A stretch of 27,940 nucleotides of DNA from a virus (lineage: Duplodnaviria; Heunggongvirae; Uroviricota; Caudoviricetes), in IMG/VR virus record IMGVR_UViG_2778261462_000004. One strand, written 5' to 3'. Made by a program: the position numbers and the translations under genes. Below, piece by piece: positions 1 through 12,208 of this stretch. Position 1 is the stretch's first letter. Each line of letters begins with the position of its first letter. The notes beneath the pieces are model-generated. The model had not been told where the DNA came from. It did no database searches and saw only the letters and a program-made list of their open reading frames with translations.

Positions 1-1011
1 TTATAACGTTACTCCACCGTTAAGAGGATTCAGCGCGACGGCGTTCTGCAGGTAGTCAGGCGCAAGGTGAGCGTAGGCCATCGTCTGCTGAATGCTCGCA
101 TGCCCGAGAATCTGCTGCAGCGCAATTATGTTGCCCCCGTTCATCATGAAATGACTTGCGAATGTGTGTCGCAGGATGTGAGTTGCCTGATTGGGTGGTA
201 TGTCAGGTTTCACTCTGCGTAAAATTCCGCAAAACTTCTCATAATCGACCTTGAACAATTTAGCGCTAGCCTCCTCTTTAACTTTTTTCTCCAGTTCCTC
301 AGAAATTGGCACGGTTCGCTTTTTGCCGTTTTTGGTTTTCAAAAAGGTAACCCTGCAGCTTGTTATCTGTGCTGGTTTCAGTGTGGCAACTTCCGTCCAT
401 CTTCCGCCTGTGCTCAGGCACAAAAGCGCGACCAGCAAGTCATCACCAACCAAAACGCTTAACAGCTTCTCGATTTCTGATTTCTCCAGAAATGTCATTT
501 CCGGGTTGGCTTCCGCCAGTGGCGGCAGTCCATGAATAGGATGTTGCCCGGAAAACTCATCCAACTGGATTAGCTTGGTGAACATGCCCGATAAGCGGTA
601 CATGTCACGATTTATCGTCGCGGCGCTGATGCCATCACGCAGGCGCGTAGAGCGATAATCCATCAGAGCTCTTTTGCTAACCCGGCTCACCGGCATATCA
701 CCTATGCCGCTGATAGTCTTGAGCAGGTGATTAAACTCTTTTGTGCCGTGTTCATGGTTTTGTCCGTGATACTTCCACCAGACGTCAAGCAATTCCGCTA
801 AAGTGCGACGGTCTGCTCGCTGGCCTGCCCATTCTTTCTGGCTGGCATTGGCGATGGTGTATCGCTCAAATGCTACCGCCTCAGCCTTTCTTTCAAACTT
901 CCTGCGGATGCGTTTTCCATCGCGACCGCGAGGTCTAATGTCCACTTCATAGCGACCATCATCGAGCTTCTTAATTGCCATAAGAAAGCCCTCCGGCGCT
1001 GTGCTCACCAT
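1..1011 (-). CDS. int: P2-type tyrosine integrase (stop codon at window positions 1-3)
   Basis: 336-aa ORF; C-terminal catalytic signature visible (..ATHILRHTFASH.. and ..GHASIQQTMAYAHL.., the R/H-x-x-R and Tyr nucleophile region of tyrosine recombinases); sits 39 bp downstream of repressor C on the same strand as in the P2 C-int arrangement. Confidence 0.9.
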   Translation of the reverse strand: MVSTAPEGFLMAIKKLDDGRYEVDIRPRGRDGKRIRRKFERKAEAVAFERYTIANASQKEWAGQRADRRTLAELLDVWWKYHGQNHEHGTKEFNHLLKTISGIGDMPVSRVSKRALMDYRSTRLRDGISAATINRDMYRLSGMFTKLIQLDEFSGQHPIHGLPPLAEANPEMTFLEKSEIEKLLSVLVGDDLLVALLCLSTGGRWTEVATLKPAQITSCRVTFLKTKNGKKRTVPISEELEKKVKEEASAKLFKVDYEKFCGILRRVKPDIPPNQATHILRHTFASHFMMNGGNIIALQQILGHASIQQTMAYAHLAPDYLQNAVALNPLNGGVTL

Positions 1012-3236: not shown

Positions 3237-3508
3237 GCATTCGTATCGAGATTGGCGAGCGCTATGTCGTCACAAGTGACCGTTTTCAGTTCATTTTGCA
3301 GGAGAAAAAGACCGCTGAAACAGGGAAGAATGCCGGTAAAGAGTGGCTGGATGTTGTCGGCTATTACCCCAAATTAAACCAGCTCGTTTCCGGTCTGATT
3401 CATCACGATATTTTGAGCGGTAGCGCTGTCTCTTTTGAGGAATTGAGCGCTCAGGTTGAGCTACTCGGTCAGCAGTGTTTAAGGGCTTTTGACACAAATG
3501 GCCGTTGA
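3233..3508 (+). CDS. early hypothetical protein (91 aa), position of P2 orf83
   Basis: ATGA overlap with the preceding stop; ORF directly precedes A. Confidence 0.55.
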   Translation: MSIRIEIGERYVVTSDRFQFILQEKKTAETGKNAGKEWLDVVGYYPKLNQLVSGLIHHDILSGSAVSFEELSAQVELLGQQCLRAFDTNGR

Positions 3509-5789
3509 AATTCGGGGGCGTTCTGCCCCTACACCGCCACCACCATTTGCAAAAAACACCGGCAAAGAGTTTGCCGGTGTTTACTCATGGAACGCGCCGC
3601 GTGAGGCTATTGGGCGTGAGAGACCCCTTACACGTGACGAGCTGCGTCAGGTGCAAGGGGTTTTATCTAAAATTGACCGCCTACCTTACTTTTTAAGTTC
3701 TCTGTTTACTTCGCGCTATGAATATATCAGGCGCAACAAAAGCCCTGTGCATGGGCTGTATTTCCTCAAGTCGACATTTCTGCGCCGGTTGTGGCCGCGC
3801 ATTGAGCGGGTTAATCAGCGTAACGAAATGAATACAGAGGCGTCGCTGCTGTTTCTTGCTGAAAGTGAGAATTACGCGCGCCTGCCGGGGATGAACGATA
3901 AAGAGCTGAAAAAATTTGCGTCTCGTATCGCCTCGCAGCTTTTCATCATGTACGAGGAGTTAAGCGACGCATGGGCTGAGGCGCACGGTGGCAAAGAGTC
4001 GCTTTTTACCGATGAGGCTCAGGCGCACCTGTACGGTCATGTTGCTGGCGCAGCTCGTGCTTTTAATGTTGCCCCGCTTTTCTGGAAGAAATACCGCAAA
4101 GGCCTGATGACAATCCGACAGGCATTTTCCGCCGTCGCTCGCCTGATTAACGATGAATGGTGGACTAACCAGCTTAAGGCGCAGCGCATGCGCTGGCATG
4201 AAGCGCTGCTGATTGCTGCAGGCGAGGTGAATAAAGACCGCTCGCCGTATGCCAGTAAAAACGCCATCCGTGATGTGCATGCACGCCGCCTGGCAAATCT
4301 TGAATACCTGAAATCCTGCGAGCTGGAAAACAAAGTTACCGGCGAACGTATCGACCTTATCAGCAAAGTGATGGGAAGTATTTCCAATCCTGAAATTCGC
4401 CGCATGGAGCTGATGAACACCATTGCGGGGATTGAGCGTTATGCCGCTGCTGAGGGTGATGTCGGTATGTTTATCACGCTGACTGCACCGTCGAAGTATC
4501 ACCCGACTCGTCAAGTCGGGAAGGGTAAAGATAAGACTGTACAGCTTAATCATAGCTGGAATGGTGAGGCTTACACCCCGAAGGATGCGCAGCGTTATCT
4601 TTGCCGTATCTGGAGCCTGATGCGTACCGCTTTCAAAGATAATGATTTGCAGGTTTACGGTATGCGCGTCGTCGAACCGCACCATGACGGGACGCCGCAC
4701 TGGCACATGATGCTGTTTTGCAAGCGCCAGCAACGCAAAGAAATCACCGAAATTATGCGTCGTTATGCTCTCAAAGAGGATGGCGACGAGCGCGGTGCTG
4801 CTCGCAACCGCTTTCAGGCTAAGCACCTGAACAAAGGCGGTGCGGCCGGGTACATCGCGAAATACATCGCCAAAAATATCGACGGTTACGCGTTAGATGG
4901 CGAGCTCGATAAAGATACCGGCAAACCGCTCAAAGATACCGCCGCCGCTGTTACTGCATGGGCGTCAACGTGGCGAATCCCTCAGTTTAAGCCGATTGGC
5001 CTGCCGACGATGGGCGCTTACCGTGAGCTGCGCAAGCTGCCTCGCGGGGTCAGTATTGCTGATGAGTTTGACGAGCGTGTCGAAGCAGCACGCGCCGCGG
5101 CTGATGGCGGTGATTTCGACCTGTATATCACTGCTCAGGGCGGCGCAAATGTCCCGCGCGACGGTCAGACCGTCAGGGTCGCCCGTAGCGTCAGTGATGA
5201 GGTTAACGACTACGAAGAAGATATCGAGAGGGTGGTCGGTATTTACGCGCCTCACCTCGGCGCGCGTCACGTTCACATTACCCGGTCATCAGAATGGCGC
5301 ATCGTTCCAAAGGTTTTGGCCGTTGAGCCTTTGACCTTAAAAAGCGGCATCGCCGCGCCTCGGAGTCCTGTCAATAACTGTGGAAAGCTCACCGGCGGTG
5401 ACGTTTCGGTTATGACCACTACACCGTCTGAGTATGCCGCAGCGGTGTTAAATCTTGTTGATGACGGGGTTATCGCATGGGATGACCCCGAAGTCGTGAC
5501 GGCGCTCAAGGGCGCACTAAAACACGACGCGCCGCAGCAAAATCGTCAGCAAAGAAGTGGAGAGCCATTAAAACAGCATGACGTTGCCCCATCAGGCAGG
5601 CTGACTAAATCCGAACGCGCGCAAATACCGCGCATCCGCTTTGACCTTGCGCAGCAAGGCATCACTCCGAAGCGCTGGGAGCTTGAGGCGCTGGCGCGTG
5701 GTGCGACCGTGACATACCACGGGCAGAAATTCACATATCCGGTCGCTGATGAGTGGCCGGGGTTTACTGGTATATCTGAATGGGGGTAA
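3498..5789 (+). CDS. A: rolling-circle replication initiator A (HUH endonuclease), 763 aa from ATG 3498
   Basis: HUH motif ..GTPHWHMMLF.. and double-tyrosine active-site motif ..AGYIAKYIAKN.. visible in the translation; N-terminus MAVEIRGR..AGVYSWNAPREAIGRERPLTRDE.. close to P2 gpA as recalled. Confidence 0.93.
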   Translation: MAVEIRGRSAPTPPPPFAKNTGKEFAGVYSWNAPREAIGRERPLTRDELRQVQGVLSKIDRLPYFLSSLFTSRYEYIRRNKSPVHGLYFLKSTFLRRLWPRIERVNQRNEMNTEASLLFLAESENYARLPGMNDKELKKFASRIASQLFIMYEELSDAWAEAHGGKESLFTDEAQAHLYGHVAGAARAFNVAPLFWKKYRKGLMTIRQAFSAVARLINDEWWTNQLKAQRMRWHEALLIAAGEVNKDRSPYASKNAIRDVHARRLANLEYLKSCELENKVTGERIDLISKVMGSISNPEIRRMELMNTIAGIERYAAAEGDVGMFITLTAPSKYHPTRQVGKGKDKTVQLNHSWNGEAYTPKDAQRYLCRIWSLMRTAFKDNDLQVYGMRVVEPHHDGTPHWHMMLFCKRQQRKEITEIMRRYALKEDGDERGAARNRFQAKHLNKGGAAGYIAKYIAKNIDGYALDGELDKDTGKPLKDTAAAVTAWASTWRIPQFKPIGLPTMGAYRELRKLPRGVSIADEFDERVEAARAAADGGDFDLYITAQGGANVPRDGQTVRVARSVSDEVNDYEEDIERVVGIYAPHLGARHVHITRSSEWRIVPKVLAVEPLTLKSGIAAPRSPVNNCGKLTGGDVSVMTTTPSEYAAAVLNLVDDGVIAWDDPEVVTALKGALKHDAPQQNRQQRSGEPLKQHDVAPSGRLTKSERAQIPRIRFDLAQQGITPKRWELEALARGATVTYHGQKFTYPVADEWPGFTGISEWG

Positions 5790-5806
5790 TTGTGAGAAAA
5801 ATCTGT

Positions 5807-5980
5807 GTGATTGTTGGGTGGATTGCTGGGCTGTCGCTTTTCTTTCTGCTTCTTGGTTGGGCGGGTGAGCAAGACCGTAAAGACTGTGAGGAACGGATAG
5901 CAACAGAGCTGAAAACCACGGCTGTTTTTATAAACAATAAGTGCATGGTGAAGGGGTATGGCCGCTTTGACGGGAGGTGA
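5807..5980 (+). CDS. small single-pass membrane protein (57 aa from GTG 5807; alternative starts ATG 5780 / GTG 5792)
   Basis: Hydrophobic stretch ICVIVGWIAGLSLFFLLLGW followed by a charged tail; GAGAAA 7 nt before GTG 5807; sits where P2 carries orf91/tin/old; followed by a terminator. Confidence 0.4.
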   Translation: MIVGWIAGLSLFFLLLGWAGEQDRKDCEERIATELKTTAVFINNKCMVKGYGRFDGR

Positions 5981-6089
5981 CCTATCTGACCCGAGCAAAC
6001 GCCGCCGGTGCTGAAACTCGCTTTCAGTGCTGGCGGGGTTGAACAACGAGCCCCGCGAGGCGTTAGCCTGCCCCGTAGAGACCGCCCAC

Positions 6090-6118
6090 AACCGGCACGA
6101 TTAAAGCCGGTTTTTTTA
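6090..6118 (+). terminator. candidate intrinsic terminator of the early operon
   Basis: AACCGGC-acgattaaa-GCCGGTT hairpin followed by T7 run (6111-6117). Confidence 0.45.
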
Positions 6119-6277
6119 TGCCATTTTTCCGCGAATTTCCCGTTTTTAAGCCGTGCATGCAACAGGTGCATTGTTTTGCATGCGTCAGGCTTGCCCGTCT
6201 TGGCCGTGCGCCGCCAGTGCTGGCGCGGATCCAGAGTGGTCATGCAACTGCATTAAAACCGACCCATAAAGCGGGCA

Positions 6278-6296
6278 GGCGTGGCGGGGAAAGCAT
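6278..6296. other. cos cohesive-end site (GGCGTGGCGGGGAAAGCAT)
   Basis: 19-mer closely matching the 19-nt cohesive end I recall for P2/186-family phages (GGCG[A/T]GGCGGGGAAAGCA[C/T]); lies between the early region and portal Q, exactly where cos sits in P2. Confidence 0.6.
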
Positions 6297-6440
6297 TGCG
6301 CGCCAGCGGTGATGCGTAATGATAAAAATTATCGTCTGAGCGCGTCGTGATGGCGCTGCCGTGGATGCTGTCGGCTCGTTGGTGGTCTGGTGTGGTCGTG
6401 CGCGCGTGGCGCGTCTGAGGCGTGATGGTGGCGGGGTGTG

Positions 6441-6462
6441 AAAAAGCCGCCATGCTGGCGGC
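6441..6462 (-). terminator. intrinsic terminator downstream of Q on the minus strand
   Basis: GCCGCCA-tgc-TGGCGGC stem; on the minus strand it is followed by TTTTT (A5 at 6441-6445 on plus). Confidence 0.55.
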
Positions 6463-6473
6463 TTGAGGGGGGA

Positions 6474-7520
6474 TTATTCCGGGTTGTCGAGGGTGTACTC
6501 TTTGAACCTGATGACCTCCATGCCGAGCCAGTCGTTTACCTCCCTGAGCCTGTCCTGCAGGGGTGACAGCTCGTTACGCACGAATACTTTTGCCACCTTC
6601 TCAACGTCGCCGAGTGAGCCGATATTCTCGGGCTTGCCGCCCATGAGCTGGAACGGTACGCGGTGCGCGTCCATCAGGTCGGCGGCGCTGGCTTTCTTGA
6701 TGTTGAAAAAGTCATCCTTTGTGGCGACCTCGCTCAGTGGCAATATTTTGATGCCGTCCGGTTTTCCGCCGGGAGCATAGAAAAATAGGTTCTTAAAGTT
6801 CCCGAGCCCTTTCGAGTTGCGCATCGCCTCGCGCAGCGATTCGACGTCGGTCGCGCTCTGCGCCGGGTCGGTCACATACATGATGTAACCCGCGTGCGCG
6901 CCGTTCTGGTAATACTTGCGGCGAAACAGTGTCGCGGATTCATTCAGCCAGGCGGAATTTAGCGCGCTGAGATATTCGGGCAGGCCGTAAATCTCCTGAT
7001 TTATATCGGGCTCCAGCAGATGAAACACGGTATCAGGCGCGAACTCATGCGGAAGTGTGAAGTTTTCCACAAACCAGAATATCGAATCGTCGACCCCGCG
7101 CCGGGTATATTTGGCCGGTGAGGCAAGCAGCTTGATTAACTGGCCGGTGACGCTGTGGCGCTGCTCAAGAAAGGCGTTTCCGAATACCAGATAGTCGAGC
7201 GCAAAGCGGCTGAAATCCTGACGGGACAGCAGCGGGTGCGGAATGTAGGTGCTCGCGAGCACGTTGCGCTTAACGTAAATCGGTGAGCTGTGATGCACAG
7301 CAGAGCGCAGGCTCTTTGCCAGTCCGGAGAAGCTGACCGGCGGCTCGTACCATTTGCCGTTACTGATGCACTCGACGTAATCCAGAATATCGCGCTTATC
7401 GAGTACCGGAATCGGCTCGCCGAAGGTGAACGCTGTCGTTTTTGGCGGTGCGCTGGCGGTCAGTTGTTGTGGCTTGCTGGCCTTCTGCGCAGCGGCTTTA
7501 CGGGATTTTTGCTTACCCAT
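6474..7520 (-). CDS. Q: capsid portal protein Q (348 aa)
   Basis: Size and position match P2 Q; start ATG one nt from the P stop; leftward Q-P operon. Confidence 0.9.
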   Translation of the reverse strand: MGKQKSRKAAAQKASKPQQLTASAPPKTTAFTFGEPIPVLDKRDILDYVECISNGKWYEPPVSFSGLAKSLRSAVHHSSPIYVKRNVLASTYIPHPLLSRQDFSRFALDYLVFGNAFLEQRHSVTGQLIKLLASPAKYTRRGVDDSIFWFVENFTLPHEFAPDTVFHLLEPDINQEIYGLPEYLSALNSAWLNESATLFRRKYYQNGAHAGYIMYVTDPAQSATDVESLREAMRNSKGLGNFKNLFFYAPGGKPDGIKILPLSEVATKDDFFNIKKASAADLMDAHRVPFQLMGGKPENIGSLGDVEKVAKVFVRNELSPLQDRLREVNDWLGMEVIRFKEYTLDNPE

Positions 7521-7521
7521 T

Positions 7522-9291
7522 TTAGTTGAACTCCAGAATAGATTTAGGCTGCATGCCGCTACCGGCGGAAAGCGGTTCGTTTAACAGAGCGTGCATGGTT
7601 GCCCATGCGATATCGGCGTGACTGGCTTCCTCGGTGCGGCTGGCCTCGTAGGTGGCGCTGCGCCCGCTGCTGGTCATGGTTTTGCGGATGGACATAAACG
7701 ACTGCGTGACGTCGGTCGCCCCGGCGTCGTACTCCAGACAGCCGCGGCGAATGGTGTCTTTCGCCTTGAGTACCATCGCGGTTTTCATTTCGGGGGTGTA
7801 ACGGATGCCGCGTGCCGCCGGGTAGAATGAGCGCACCAACTGGAACACGCCGAGACCGAGGCCGGTTGCGTCAATGCCGATGTATTCGACGTTGTATTTC
7901 TCGGTCAGCTTGCGGATGCCCTCTGCCTGTGCGGCAAAGTCCATGCCCTTCCACTGGTGGCGCTCCAGCATGCGGAACTTGCCACCAGAAACCACCGGCG
8001 GCGCGAGCACGACGCACCCGGCGCTGTCGCCAGTGTGTGACGGGTCGTAGCCAATCCAGACGGGGCGAGAGCCGAACGGATGGTCGGCGAACGGGGCGAA
8101 GTCCTCCCATTCTTCCATCACGTCGACCATGCAGCGCTGCAGCTCCTCGAACGGGAATACCGAAGCTTTATCGTCGACAAACTCGCACATAAACAGGTTC
8201 TTAAAGTCCTCATCACTGTTTTCGCGTTTGAGCTGGTCGAGGTCGAACAGGGTGCAGCCACCGGCAAGGGCGTCCTCAATGGTGACAATCTGCCGCCACT
8301 GACCATCGTCGCAGAGCTGACCACCGGCGAGCGCGTCGTGGCTGATGTCGATTTCGATGCGGTCGGCAATACGGCTGCGACCCTTGTTGAACAGTTCGCC
8401 AGACCAGAAGGGGTAAGCGCCGTGCGCCAGCGTGGAAGGTGTCGAAAAGTAGGTTGAGCGCAGGTGCTTCTGCGAGGCCATGCCCGACGCGACTTTGCGC
8501 AGCTTCTGAAAATTCGGGATCCAGAATATTTCATCGACATACAGGTCGCCGTTATGGCTCTGCGCGGTATTGGAGTTGGTACCGAGAAAAATCAGCTTTG
8601 CGCCGTTGTTGCCGATGACAATCGGGTCGCCGGTCAGGTCGACGTCGACCAGTCGCGCAAACTGGATGATGTATTCGCGGAACACGTAAGCCTGAGTTTT
8701 ACTGGCCGACAGAAAGATTTGGTTATGGCCGGTCTTGAGTGCGCGCAGCAGCGCCTCGCGGGAGAAATAGAACGTCGCGCCAATCTGACGGGATTTGAGA
8801 ATGTCGCGAATACGGTGCGCCAGTCCTGCGCGGTACCACTGCAACTGGTACTCGAAAGACTGGTCGAAAAATAATTCTTCCAGTTTTTCGATAGCCTCGT
8901 CGCTGAAAAAGTTCTTTTTTGGCTTCTTACGCTCGCCCTTGTTACGGTTGGCGACATTGGGGTTAAGGTCGACCTCGTTGCCGGTCTGGCTGTAGCGGTT
9001 AACGCGTGCCAGTCGCTCAATCTGCCGCCCGAGCAGGTCAATCTCTTTGAAGTCGCCGCCTGACTTTTGCGGCTTGGCGATGAGCTGAATCAGGCGCGCC
9101 TCAAGGCTGCTTTCAACCCGGGAAATCGGTGCGATGCCGTCCCAGCCGTCGCGCTGCTTCCAGCTCTGCACGGTCGGGCGCTTGACCTGCAGCATTTCGG
9201 CAATCTGTGGCACGGAAAAGCCCTGCCAGTAAAGCAGCGATGCCTGCCGTCGCGGGTCATGCAACAAGGTTGTATCGGTGGAAATGGTCAT
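7522..9291 (-). CDS. P: terminase large (ATPase/nuclease) subunit P (589 aa)
   Basis: Size (P2 gpP ~590 aa) and position divergent from O; long well-behaved ORF. Confidence 0.9.
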   Translation of the reverse strand: MTISTDTTLLHDPRRQASLLYWQGFSVPQIAEMLQVKRPTVQSWKQRDGWDGIAPISRVESSLEARLIQLIAKPQKSGGDFKEIDLLGRQIERLARVNRYSQTGNEVDLNPNVANRNKGERKKPKKNFFSDEAIEKLEELFFDQSFEYQLQWYRAGLAHRIRDILKSRQIGATFYFSREALLRALKTGHNQIFLSASKTQAYVFREYIIQFARLVDVDLTGDPIVIGNNGAKLIFLGTNSNTAQSHNGDLYVDEIFWIPNFQKLRKVASGMASQKHLRSTYFSTPSTLAHGAYPFWSGELFNKGRSRIADRIEIDISHDALAGGQLCDDGQWRQIVTIEDALAGGCTLFDLDQLKRENSDEDFKNLFMCEFVDDKASVFPFEELQRCMVDVMEEWEDFAPFADHPFGSRPVWIGYDPSHTGDSAGCVVLAPPVVSGGKFRMLERHQWKGMDFAAQAEGIRKLTEKYNVEYIGIDATGLGLGVFQLVRSFYPAARGIRYTPEMKTAMVLKAKDTIRRGCLEYDAGATDVTQSFMSIRKTMTSSGRSATYEASRTEEASHADIAWATMHALLNEPLSAGSGMQPKSILEFN

Positions 9292-11458: not shown

Positions 11459-12208
11459 ATGACGAGCCCCGCACAGCGTCACATGATGCGGGTCTCGGCC
11501 TCTCAAGCCGCGCAGCGGGAACAAGCCCCGCTGCGCCACGCAACCGCCTACGAGCAGATGCTGGTAAAGCTGGCCGATGACCGCCGCACGTTAAAAACCA
11601 TTCGTTCAAACGAACTGAAAGCCGCGAAAAAGCGCGAGCTGCTGCCGTTCTATGCGCCGTGGGTTGCCGGTGTGCTGGCTGATGGCCGTGGCGCACAGGA
11701 TGACATTCTGATGACCGTCATGCTGTGGCGTCTCGATGCCGGTGACGTTGCTGGCGCGCTGGAAATTGCCCCCTACGCGCTGAAATACGGCCTCACCTCA
11801 GACCATCGCCGTACCACGCCTTACATGCTGGTTGAGGAGGTGGCGCTTGCGGCACTACGCCTGCGCGATGCCGGTGAGCCTGTCGACCTCGCATTACTCC
11901 TGACCACCCTCAGCCTGACCGACGGTGCTGACGTTCCCGATATGGTGCGCGCCCGTCTGCATAAGGTGACCGGCCTGACCCTGCGCGATGCCGGTCAGAA
12001 CGCCGAGGCGCTGGCGCAGTTTCAGCGCGCGATGCAGCTCGACCGCAACGCCGGTGTGCGTAAAGAGATTGAGCGACTGGAGCGGGCATTGAAGCCAAAG
12101 CCTGAGGCAGCACCCCGTAAAACGACTAAACCGCGCACGCGCAAACCTGCCGCCAGACCGGCGGCAAAGCGCGGGCGTCCACCAAAGGCGGTAAAAACCG
12201 CCGGTTAA
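11459..12208 (+). CDS. M: terminase small subunit M (249 aa from ATG 11459)
   Basis: MTSPAQRHMMRVSA..NELKAAKKRELLPFYAPWV..GVLADGRGAQDD..MTVMLWRLD as recalled for P2 gpM; starts 4 nt after N stop; basic C-terminal tail. Confidence 0.88.
   Translation: MTSPAQRHMMRVSASQAAQREQAPLRHATAYEQMLVKLADDRRTLKTIRSNELKAAKKRELLPFYAPWVAGVLADGRGAQDDILMTVMLWRLDAGDVAGALEIAPYALKYGLTSDHRRTTPYMLVEEVALAALRLRDAGEPVDLALLLTTLSLTDGADVPDMVRARLHKVTGLTLRDAGQNAEALAQFQRAMQLDRNAGVRKEIERLERALKPKPEAAPRKTTKPRTRKPAARPAAKRGRPPKAVKTAG

Follow-up and report, generated by a model that had tools for sequence, protein, structure and literature searches.

What does the terminase of a P2- or 186-like phage read beside the site that it cuts? 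We address this question for the cohesive end site (cos) of a prophage represented by the IMG/VR virus record IMGVR_UViG_2778261462_000004 (Caudoviricetes), from which a stretch of 27,940 nt, called here the window, was analyzed. A cos site is a textbook element, and recognizing one in a prophage is a routine matter of annotation. The original prediction for this locus, made from the sequence alone, went further by proposing that several conspicuous repeats to the left of the cohesive end could be binding sites for the small terminase subunit (TerS).

Our analysis points to a different set of bases. We assign a probability of roughly 0.7 to the reading that positions 6154-6303 constitute a 186-type cos that is recognized by a component of the phage terminase through helically phased (T/C)GCA(T/A) words. 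The flank elements that the sequence comparisons favor are five such words, located at 6154-6181 and 6241-6253, rather than the inverted repeat, the palindrome and the pair of 11-mers that had been singled out.

A cos site of the 186 type

The cohesive end, equivalent to cosN, is the 19-nt sequence GGCGTGGCGGGGAAAGCAT at 6278-6296 on the + strand. It is identical to bases 1-19 of the 186 genome (GenBank U32222), which are annotated as [quoted passage not shown], and the PSP3 record carries the same annotation on the same sequence. The 19-mer matches the family cohesive-end consensus GGCG(A/T)GGCGGGGAAAGCA(C/T), and even with three mismatches allowed it is found only once in the window (0.01 occurrences expected by chance). 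Furthermore, the linear 186 record ends at the base aligned with window position 6277 and restarts at 6278, which is also exactly where the linear records of EtG, SEN1, PSP3 and many P2-type phages begin. Given this identity to the cos annotated in 186 and PSP3, and given that the 186 record breaks at this very point, the assignment of the 19-mer to the P2/186 family of cohesive ends was right, and alignment with the cos regions of P2, 186 and their relatives, the check that had been suggested, gives the same answer. By homology, the top strand would be cut between 6277 and 6278 and the bottom strand between 6296 and 6297, leaving 19-nt 5' overhangs. Judged by these matches, the interval 6154-6303 includes a cos packaging site of the 186 (Eganvirus-like) type, an element that is already known. 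In the record of Salmonella phage SW9 (L019, NC_049459), 10 nt (GGGAAAGCAT) are missing within the cohesive end (GGCGTGGCG|TGCGCGCC); this gap most likely arose in assembly, at the physical ends of the genome.

Several samples of relatives were used to examine the flanks. A 15-phage cos alignment comprised 186, PSP3, P2, P4, phages of Yersinia, Klebsiella, Salmonella and Escherichia, and one Aeromonas phage. A portal-anchored set was collected through the portal gene from 80 IMG/VR loci, using no cos pattern, and provided 74 distinct nick-anchored cos regions; portal homologues with 75-99% identity adjoin cos in 79 of these 80 loci. Word counts given below out of 75 refer to nick-anchored, portal-derived sequences. 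Combining the portal-anchored set with two pattern-based scans of IMG/VR gave 203 distinct P2-like cos regions. The first pattern, which had seven unspecified bases before GCGCGC, returned no enteric phages but recovered the distant lineages on which the covariation test is based; enteric phages were contributed by the portal-anchored scan and by a second pattern that had eight unspecified bases before GCGCGC. Positions with a sign are counted from the top-strand nick, such that 6277 is -1.

The two nicks lie in matching surroundings. On the left, the + strand half-site GCGGGCA, cut after its last base, occupies 6271-6277, and nearly all of the 203 relatives have GCG[G/C]GC[A/G] at -7 to -1, part of these relatives having been gathered with a pattern in which -9 to -2 was fixed. 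On the right, 6297-6303 reads TGCGCGC on the top strand and thus GCGCGCA, again cut after its last base, on the - strand; (T/C)GCGCGC is present in 184 of the 203 relatives, and this half-site is invariant across the 15-phage alignment. Together the half-sites create a two-fold symmetry around the staggered cut, with each strand cut just 3' of GCG(G/C)GCA.

Both half-sites belong to a conserved block of 55 bp at 6249-6303 (-29 to +26, + strand), in which each column carries 1.4-2 bits. P2, P4, 186 and the Aeromonas phage can be aligned throughout this block, which hardly varies across the 15-phage alignment or among 75 portal-anchored relatives. A “55-bp cos core” of P2-family phages has been attributed to Ziermann and Calendar 1990 (PMC5694545, PMC3931495, PMC9594776). 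We infer that the 6249-6303 block corresponds to this published core, with which it agrees in size.

Short words at fixed distances from the nick

To the left of the core, conservation is limited to short islands, and the sequence left of about -126 and over much of -96 to -40 is often unrelated among relatives. What is conserved across the 203 regions is a pentamer, (T/C)GCAT, which occurs in direct orientation and at fixed distances from the nick. The word positions are -124/-120, -111, -101, -35 and -29, corresponding to 6154/6158, 6167, 6177, 6243 and 6249 of the window.

All five words lie on the + strand, three in a distal and two in a proximal cluster. The first distal word is found in TGCATGCAA at 6154-6162, where TGCAT at -124 overlaps TGCAA at -120. 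Its position is looser than those of the next two: TGCAT begins at -124 in 37 of 75 relatives and at -120 in 18 of 75, and a YGCA[TA] word (Y being T or C) falls inside -126 to -118 in 171 of 203. The second distal word, TGCAT at 6167-6171 (-111), is present in 60 of 75 relatives (YGCAT in 175 of 203) and is the same in P2, P4 and 186, and the third, TGCAT at 6177-6181 (-101), is present in 62 of 75 (YGCAT in 178 of 203) and is the same in P2, P4, 186 and PSP3. Nearer to the nick, CATGCAA at 6241-6247 contains TGCAA at -35, and ATGCA begins at -36 (6242) in 55 of 75 relatives; other lineages carry a lineage-specific word at this position. The last word is TGCAT at 6249-6253 (-29), inside CTGCATTAAAAC. 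It is present in all 75 portal-anchored sequences, and YGCAT is found there in 197 of 203.

These words occur as a set. YGCAT is present at -111, -101 and -29 simultaneously in 168 of the 203 regions, and in 67 of 71 within the portal-anchored subset. The stretch 6150-6255 holds six occurrences of TGCAT/ATGCA, against 0.20 per 100 bp window-wide, and nowhere else in the window does a 106-bp stretch contain four or more. Thus, the nick is accompanied by several positionally conserved copies of one short word, as expected of a cosB-like array. The recurrence lags of the words peak at 10, 13, 20, 23, 72 and 82 bp, a spacing that would put all the sites on the same helical face.

The satellite P4 helps to set the limits of this array. 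P2, P4 and 186 all have TGCAT at -124/-123, -111, -101 and -29, and P4 resembles the window only over -130 to +26. P4 depends on the terminase of its helper (PMC9122126). Because only this interval is shared with P4, the functional site most likely coincides with it.

Words that change together between lineages

In distant P2-like lineages the positions are kept and the word itself is altered, with the distal and nick-proximal copies switching together. One lineage (L079) has TGCAACC at -111 and -101 and again at -29, and another (L074) has TGCACAA at -121 and -101 and again at -37. Distal TGCACAA/TGAACAA words accompany a proximal TGAACAA at -29 in L056, and distal (T/C)GCAGGG words accompany TGCAG at both -37 and -29 in L084. 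In L234, GCCGACGA at -111 and CCCGACAC at -101 are matched by GCCGACGA at -29, and in L266 distal words of the GCACA type are matched by two proximal copies of CGCACAG. Phages of the Fels-2 type carry (C/T)GCATGA in both clusters. In addition to TGCAACC, TGCACAA, TGAACAA and TGCAG, the switched words include GCCGAC.

When the nine lineages with words other than TGCAT were compared, the 6-mer at -29 differed from its own distal region by 0.67 mismatches on average and from the distal regions of other lineages by 1.54 (permutation p = 0.00065). We infer from this covariation a multi-site target for one phage-encoded DNA-binding protein, of which such a pattern would be characteristic. Furthermore, the word goes with packaging specificity, in that P2, P4 and 186 cross-package and share it.

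Candidate readers and a model for cos recognition

Two terminase proteins encoded in the same element as the cos, both of the P2 type, are candidates for reading the words. One is the large subunit gpP, whose residues 12-69 match the Pfam family Terminase_5, with further matches to Terminase_6N, Terminase_6C and HTH_23/28. Residues 14-59 match PHROG families of the “terminase small subunit”, and gpP thus appears to have a TerS-type DNA-reading head fused to the large terminase subunit (TerL). The N-terminal TerS-type helix-turn-helix (HTH) of gpP is therefore a candidate reader of TGCAT words. The small subunit gpM is the alternative candidate; it matches PF05944 (E = 9e-40) and the terminase small subunit family phrog_74 (E = 1e-94). 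The N-terminus of gpM varies between lineages that have different words, and so does the putative recognition helix of gpP, so that this comparison favors neither protein.

Structural data offer little help in choosing between these proteins. Searches of the PDB with the sequences of gpM and of the gpP N-terminus returned no solved structure or homologue, and a single-sequence AlphaFold model of gpM is all-helical with low confidence (a pLDDT score of 56). At its C-terminus, gpM has a basic tail that includes KRGRPPK, a motif resembling an AT-hook. The longest open reading frame (ORF) for gpM, from 11363, overlaps the capsid gene, and its likely start is the ATG at 11459.

A mechanism consistent with these observations can be proposed. 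After excision and replication, the phage terminase would make the two staggered cuts given above, at 6277|6278 (top strand) and 6296|6297 (bottom strand). It would recognize cos by means of the five direct (T/C)GCA(T/A) words left of the nick, three distal and two proximal, whose spacing in multiples of about 10.3 bp would hence present them on one side of the helix. All five would be read by one multimeric terminase component, whose binding would probably bend or loop the approximately 70 bp between the clusters and thereby place the nuclease on the 19-mer. The palindrome between the clusters and the hairpin farther upstream would have no role in packaging.

A bolder generalization is that P2-family phages and P4-like satellites alike derive their packaging specificity from a five-site phased array at about -121, -111, -101, -36 and -29, which would be read by the N-terminal HTH of gpP and not by gpM alone, with approximately 100 bp of DNA wrapped or looped. 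We regard this version as doubtful and offer it only tentatively. If it were true, switches among words such as TGCAT, TGCAACC, TGAACAA, GCCGAC and others would create separate groups of helper-satellite compatibility.

Several points weigh against recognition through the phased words. A few relatives, for example L257, have no distal words at all. Much of the conservation of TGCAT comes from related phages, and the counts given above are for this reason not independent events; in addition, part of the 203-region sample was gathered with patterns that fix -9 to +12. The Aeromonas type breaks the covariation, having AAGGATC three times in the distal region and TGCAT at -29, and the permutation test is weakened by the GCA core that is common to every word. 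Judging from annotated transcript starts, the leftward old-tin promoter of P2 is expected to have a -35 region that overlaps this phage's first distal site. Finally, the papers that cite the 1990 work name only the 55-bp core as conserved or required, and the distal cluster lies outside it (PMC5694545, PMC3931495, PMC9594776). No description of distal words or of word switching was found in the cos literature, in a search that did not extend to the original 1990 paper, and the distal sites may already have been described, tested or shown to be dispensable in that P2/P4 work. There is no dissection of cos in PMC9942202, PMC12239096, PMC13100340 or PMC9611059. In favor of the array, there is an experimental hint: transduction of P2 cosmids reportedly rose more than 1000-fold when the flanks around cos were lengthened (PMC9594776), in a study whose supplement contains no cosmid sequences.

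Conspicuous repeats and alternative explanations

The repeats that first drew attention to the flank are all present in the sequence, with two of them displaced by one base from where they had been placed (6155-6162 rather than 6156-6163, and 6241-6247 rather than 6242-6248). The proposal was that GCATGCAA and its complement TTGCATGC, which form an 8-bp inverted repeat, bind a dimeric small terminase, and that the 11-mer CAGTGCTGGCG at 6025-6035 and 6215-6225 constitutes a second class of cosB-like site. The 11-mer pair is not expected by chance, as these are the sole exact copies and none arose in 100 shuffles, and the inverted repeat is also found in 186. However, GCATGCAA (6155-6162 on the + strand, 6176-6183 on the - strand) occurs in the 27.9-kb window at the level of chance, with two copies observed and 2.6 expected. 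Moreover, the inverted repeat is exact in just 20 of the 203 relatives (about 10%), and any inverted repeat of at least 8 bp occurs in only 26. Relatives such as L093 contain TTGCAT three times in direct orientation and lack an inverted repeat, and the asymmetric words TGCACAA and TGCAACC of other lineages reveal that the sites are direct repeats. The first copy of the 11-mer sits 250 bp from the nick, in an RNA-type hairpin and outside the part shared with P2 and P4, and the second copy reads CAGAGCTGGCG in 186, one base off the first copy. What survives of the proposal is that its three GCATGCAA-like matches overlap the first and third distal words and the first proximal word. The conserved unit within them is direct (T/C)GCAT, and the set as proposed lacked 6167 and 6177 as TGCAT, the best-conserved distal words, as well as the invariant word at 6249. 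As a description of what the terminase binds, the inverted repeat and 11-mers are thus very unlikely. Another possibility, that the left-flank elements are transcription signals of the cargo hotspot or early operon, either terminators against read-through or leftward promoters for cargo genes, is unlikely to a lesser degree, and it accounts plausibly for the palindrome only. A genuine terminator, the homologue of 186 t95b, lies just upstream in what is known to be a cargo hotspot (PMC9122126), the arms of the palindrome covary like those of an RNA stem, and a T-run follows it in several lineages; in P2, old-tin transcripts begin about 150 bp left of the nick, where the first TGCAT would fall within the promoter's -35 region. 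The words behave otherwise. Their distance to the nick is constant whatever the gene on the left and its direction, they are retained in P4, where the neighboring psu gene reads towards cos, and a further copy of the word, at -29 within the core, covaries with those of the distal cluster. No sigma-70-like promoter was detected in 5500-6800 by the promoter and terminator scan.

Host proteins that bend DNA offer a further explanation, in which the phased words would be binding or bending sites of a nucleoid protein that aids terminase, as IHF does at lambda cosB. Lambda is a precedent for such a host-protein role. The words are helically phased, and T-tracts at 6111-6147 (T7 at 6111-6117, T5 at 6124-6128, ATTT at 6135-6138 and T5 at 6143-6147), about 10 bp apart and just left of the first TGCAT site, suggest intrinsic curvature. 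The tracts are hardly conserved beyond the 186 subgroup, being shared outside it only by Klebsiella phage Kp4884-2, and the IHF consensus WATCAANNNNTTR has no match in 6100-6440 even with one mismatch allowed, such that a lambda-like IHF site was not found. Because the word changes with the phage lineage, among phages of related hosts, and the IHF consensus is absent, we consider a host bending protein very unlikely; a word that varies in this way and covaries with its nick-proximal copy is expected for a reader encoded by the phage.

The sequence CGCCAGTGCTGGCG (6212-6225) that contains the second 11-mer had been described as a palindrome, and it is one in the interrupted sense, since its 6-bp arms CGCCAG and CTGGCG flank a TG center that is not symmetric. 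Together with a following CGG it forms a GC-rich element at 6212-6228, with no strand assigned. The arms covary (CGCCAG/CTGGCG, CACCAG/CTGGTG, TGCCAG/CTGGCA), and a T-run follows in RE2010, Yen201.16, L074, L149, L150 and L160. Its core is present in 96 of 203 regions and is absent from P2, YpM22 and 107 of the 203 relatives, approximately half, that still have TGCAT sites. Because these relatives keep the words without it, the palindrome cannot be essential for packaging, and it is probably a terminator-type hairpin or a relic of one.

The first copy of the 11-mer forms the 3' arm of an inverted repeat at 5998-6040 (+ strand) that is not part of cos. This upstream hairpin belongs to the structured 3' end of the early/cargo transcript; the segment 5985-6125 folds with -53.5 kcal/mol (z = -2.8). 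It is common only to 186-type phages, from window position 5996 on, and is not found in P2 or P4. The hairpin resembles the palindrome at 6209-6228 plus a 19-nt insert, CGCCGCC-GTGCT[GAAACTCGCTTTCAGTGCT]GGCG-GG, which explains the apparent repetition of the 11-mer and suggests a palindromic element that was duplicated or expanded at the edge of the cargo region.

Genomic context of the cos region

The layout of ORFs and their Pfam matches identify the window as a prophage of the P2/186 family. The integrase gene lies at 1-1011 (- strand) and that for replication protein A (gene A; Pfam match) at 3489-5789 (+ strand). The portal gene at 6474-7520 (- strand; Phage_portal) encodes a homologue of P2 gpQ and 186 gpW and fixes the context of cos. 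It is followed by the gene for the large terminase gpP (TerL) at 7522-9291 (- strand; PF06056, PF03237, PF17289), and that for the small terminase gpM is at 11459-12208 (+ strand; PF05944 Phage_term_smal). The scaffold gpO and capsid gpN are also encoded in the window, so that the gene order around cos is that of P2, with portal, gpP, gpO, gpN and gpM on one side and gene A on the other. By whole-genome comparison, the closest relatives are Salmonella phage FSLSP004 (87% identical, with 90% of the query covered) and a group of Eganvirus-like phages of Escherichia, Yersinia, Klebsiella and Erwinia. Complete E. coli genomes carry the cos region at 94-96% identity, short of 100%.

Two converging terminators enclose the cos. 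The homologue of 186 t95b is a Rho-independent terminator at 6092-6117 (+ strand), built as CCGGC-N9-GCCGG followed by T7 and aligned with t95b at 30436-30463 of 186; the scan of 5500-6800 missed this terminator, whose loop is 9 nt long. The terminator of the portal/terminase operon, at 6440-6466 (- strand), consists of a perfect 9-bp inverted repeat (6444-6452/6456-6464) and a T-run on the - strand, and the terminators tW of 186 and tQ of P2 are annotated at the aligned position. As in P2-type phages, the cos is thus located between the portal operon terminator and gene A with its cargo hotspot. A sigma-54 reading of GGTGCAT-N5-TGCAT was considered and rejected on inspection, the spacing from GG to GC being 12 rather than 11 and the -24 element being mismatched. 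An Rfam scan of 5500-6800 returned only two eukaryotic families below threshold and no known RNA.

The locus to the left of cos is a known hotspot for cargo genes (PMC9122126). The hotspot, at 5780-5980 (+ strand) between gene A and cos, houses tum and orf97 in 186 and old and tin in P2. Here it contains only one ORF, of 66 amino acids and unknown function (phrog_14089, no Pfam match), and the prophage therefore has no SOS antirepressor of the 186 type at this site. Three ORFs of 64-82 amino acids cross the cos, at 6118-6312 (+), 6253-6453 (-) and 6008-6256 (+), and were treated as non-coding because they match no Pfam or PHROG family. In some phage records, small ORFs in the cos region are labeled “hypothetical protein” or “aI protein”, and such ORFs across cos regions are probably spurious gene calls.

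The right flank, 6304-6440, is 72-75% identical between P2-type and 186-type phages and is absent from P4, pro147 and RE2010. It holds an AT-rich inverted repeat, GATAAAAATTATC (6321-6333), the recurring words CGTCTGAG and CGTGATGG, and a cos-like sequence, GGCGTGATGGTGGCGGGG, at 6419-6436.

Why the flank matters

The corrected anatomy of the flank provides a testable map of the bases that the P2/186 terminase probably reads (6154-6181 and 6241-6253), and it indicates which conspicuous repeats can be ignored. Such a map is relevant to the design of cosmids and transducing particles based on P2 and P4, for which the length of the flanks is reported to alter the yield by the more than 1000-fold mentioned above (PMC9594776). 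The word could also predict which P4-like satellites a given P2-like helper packages. In addition, prophage annotation benefits, as the genome termini of P2-like prophages can be located to the base.

Comparison with known packaging sites

The cos of phage lambda is composed of cosQ, cosN and cosB, with cosB containing the sites R3, R2 and R1 for gpNu1 and the IHF site I1. The site in the window is like it in having a staggered nick site with partial two-fold symmetry and a cluster of repeats on one side that probably positions terminase. In contrast, the lambda overhang is 12 nt long rather than 19 nt, and the IHF consensus is absent here. Unlike those of lambda, the repeats in the window are on the side opposite to the terminase and portal genes, are all direct and fall into two clusters separated by about 70 bp, and the large subunit has a TerS-type HTH of its own. 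There is no sequence similarity between the two sites, and we would therefore view the resemblance as one of working only and not as membership in the lambda type.

The cos sites of P2 and P4 have the same architecture, nick positions and nick half-sites as that of the window, and their 19-mer, GGCGAGGCGGGGAAAGCAC, differs at two bases. P2 and P4 share with 186 the TGCAT words at -124/-123, -111, -101 and -29. Unlike the window, P2 has neither the palindrome nor the word at -35, and P4 differs wholly past +26 and left of -130.

The closest match is the cos of 186, whose 19-nt cohesive end, like that of PSP3, is identical to that of the window. Identity to the window is 92.6% across 282 bp in the left flank (window 5996-6277) and about 90% across 203 bp in the right flank. 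Its palindrome has AG at the center where the window has TG, and its cargo is tum and orf97 where the window has only the 66-amino-acid ORF of unknown function. The neighbors are otherwise the same, namely a t95b-type terminator to the left of cos and, to its right, the portal terminator followed by the portal gene.

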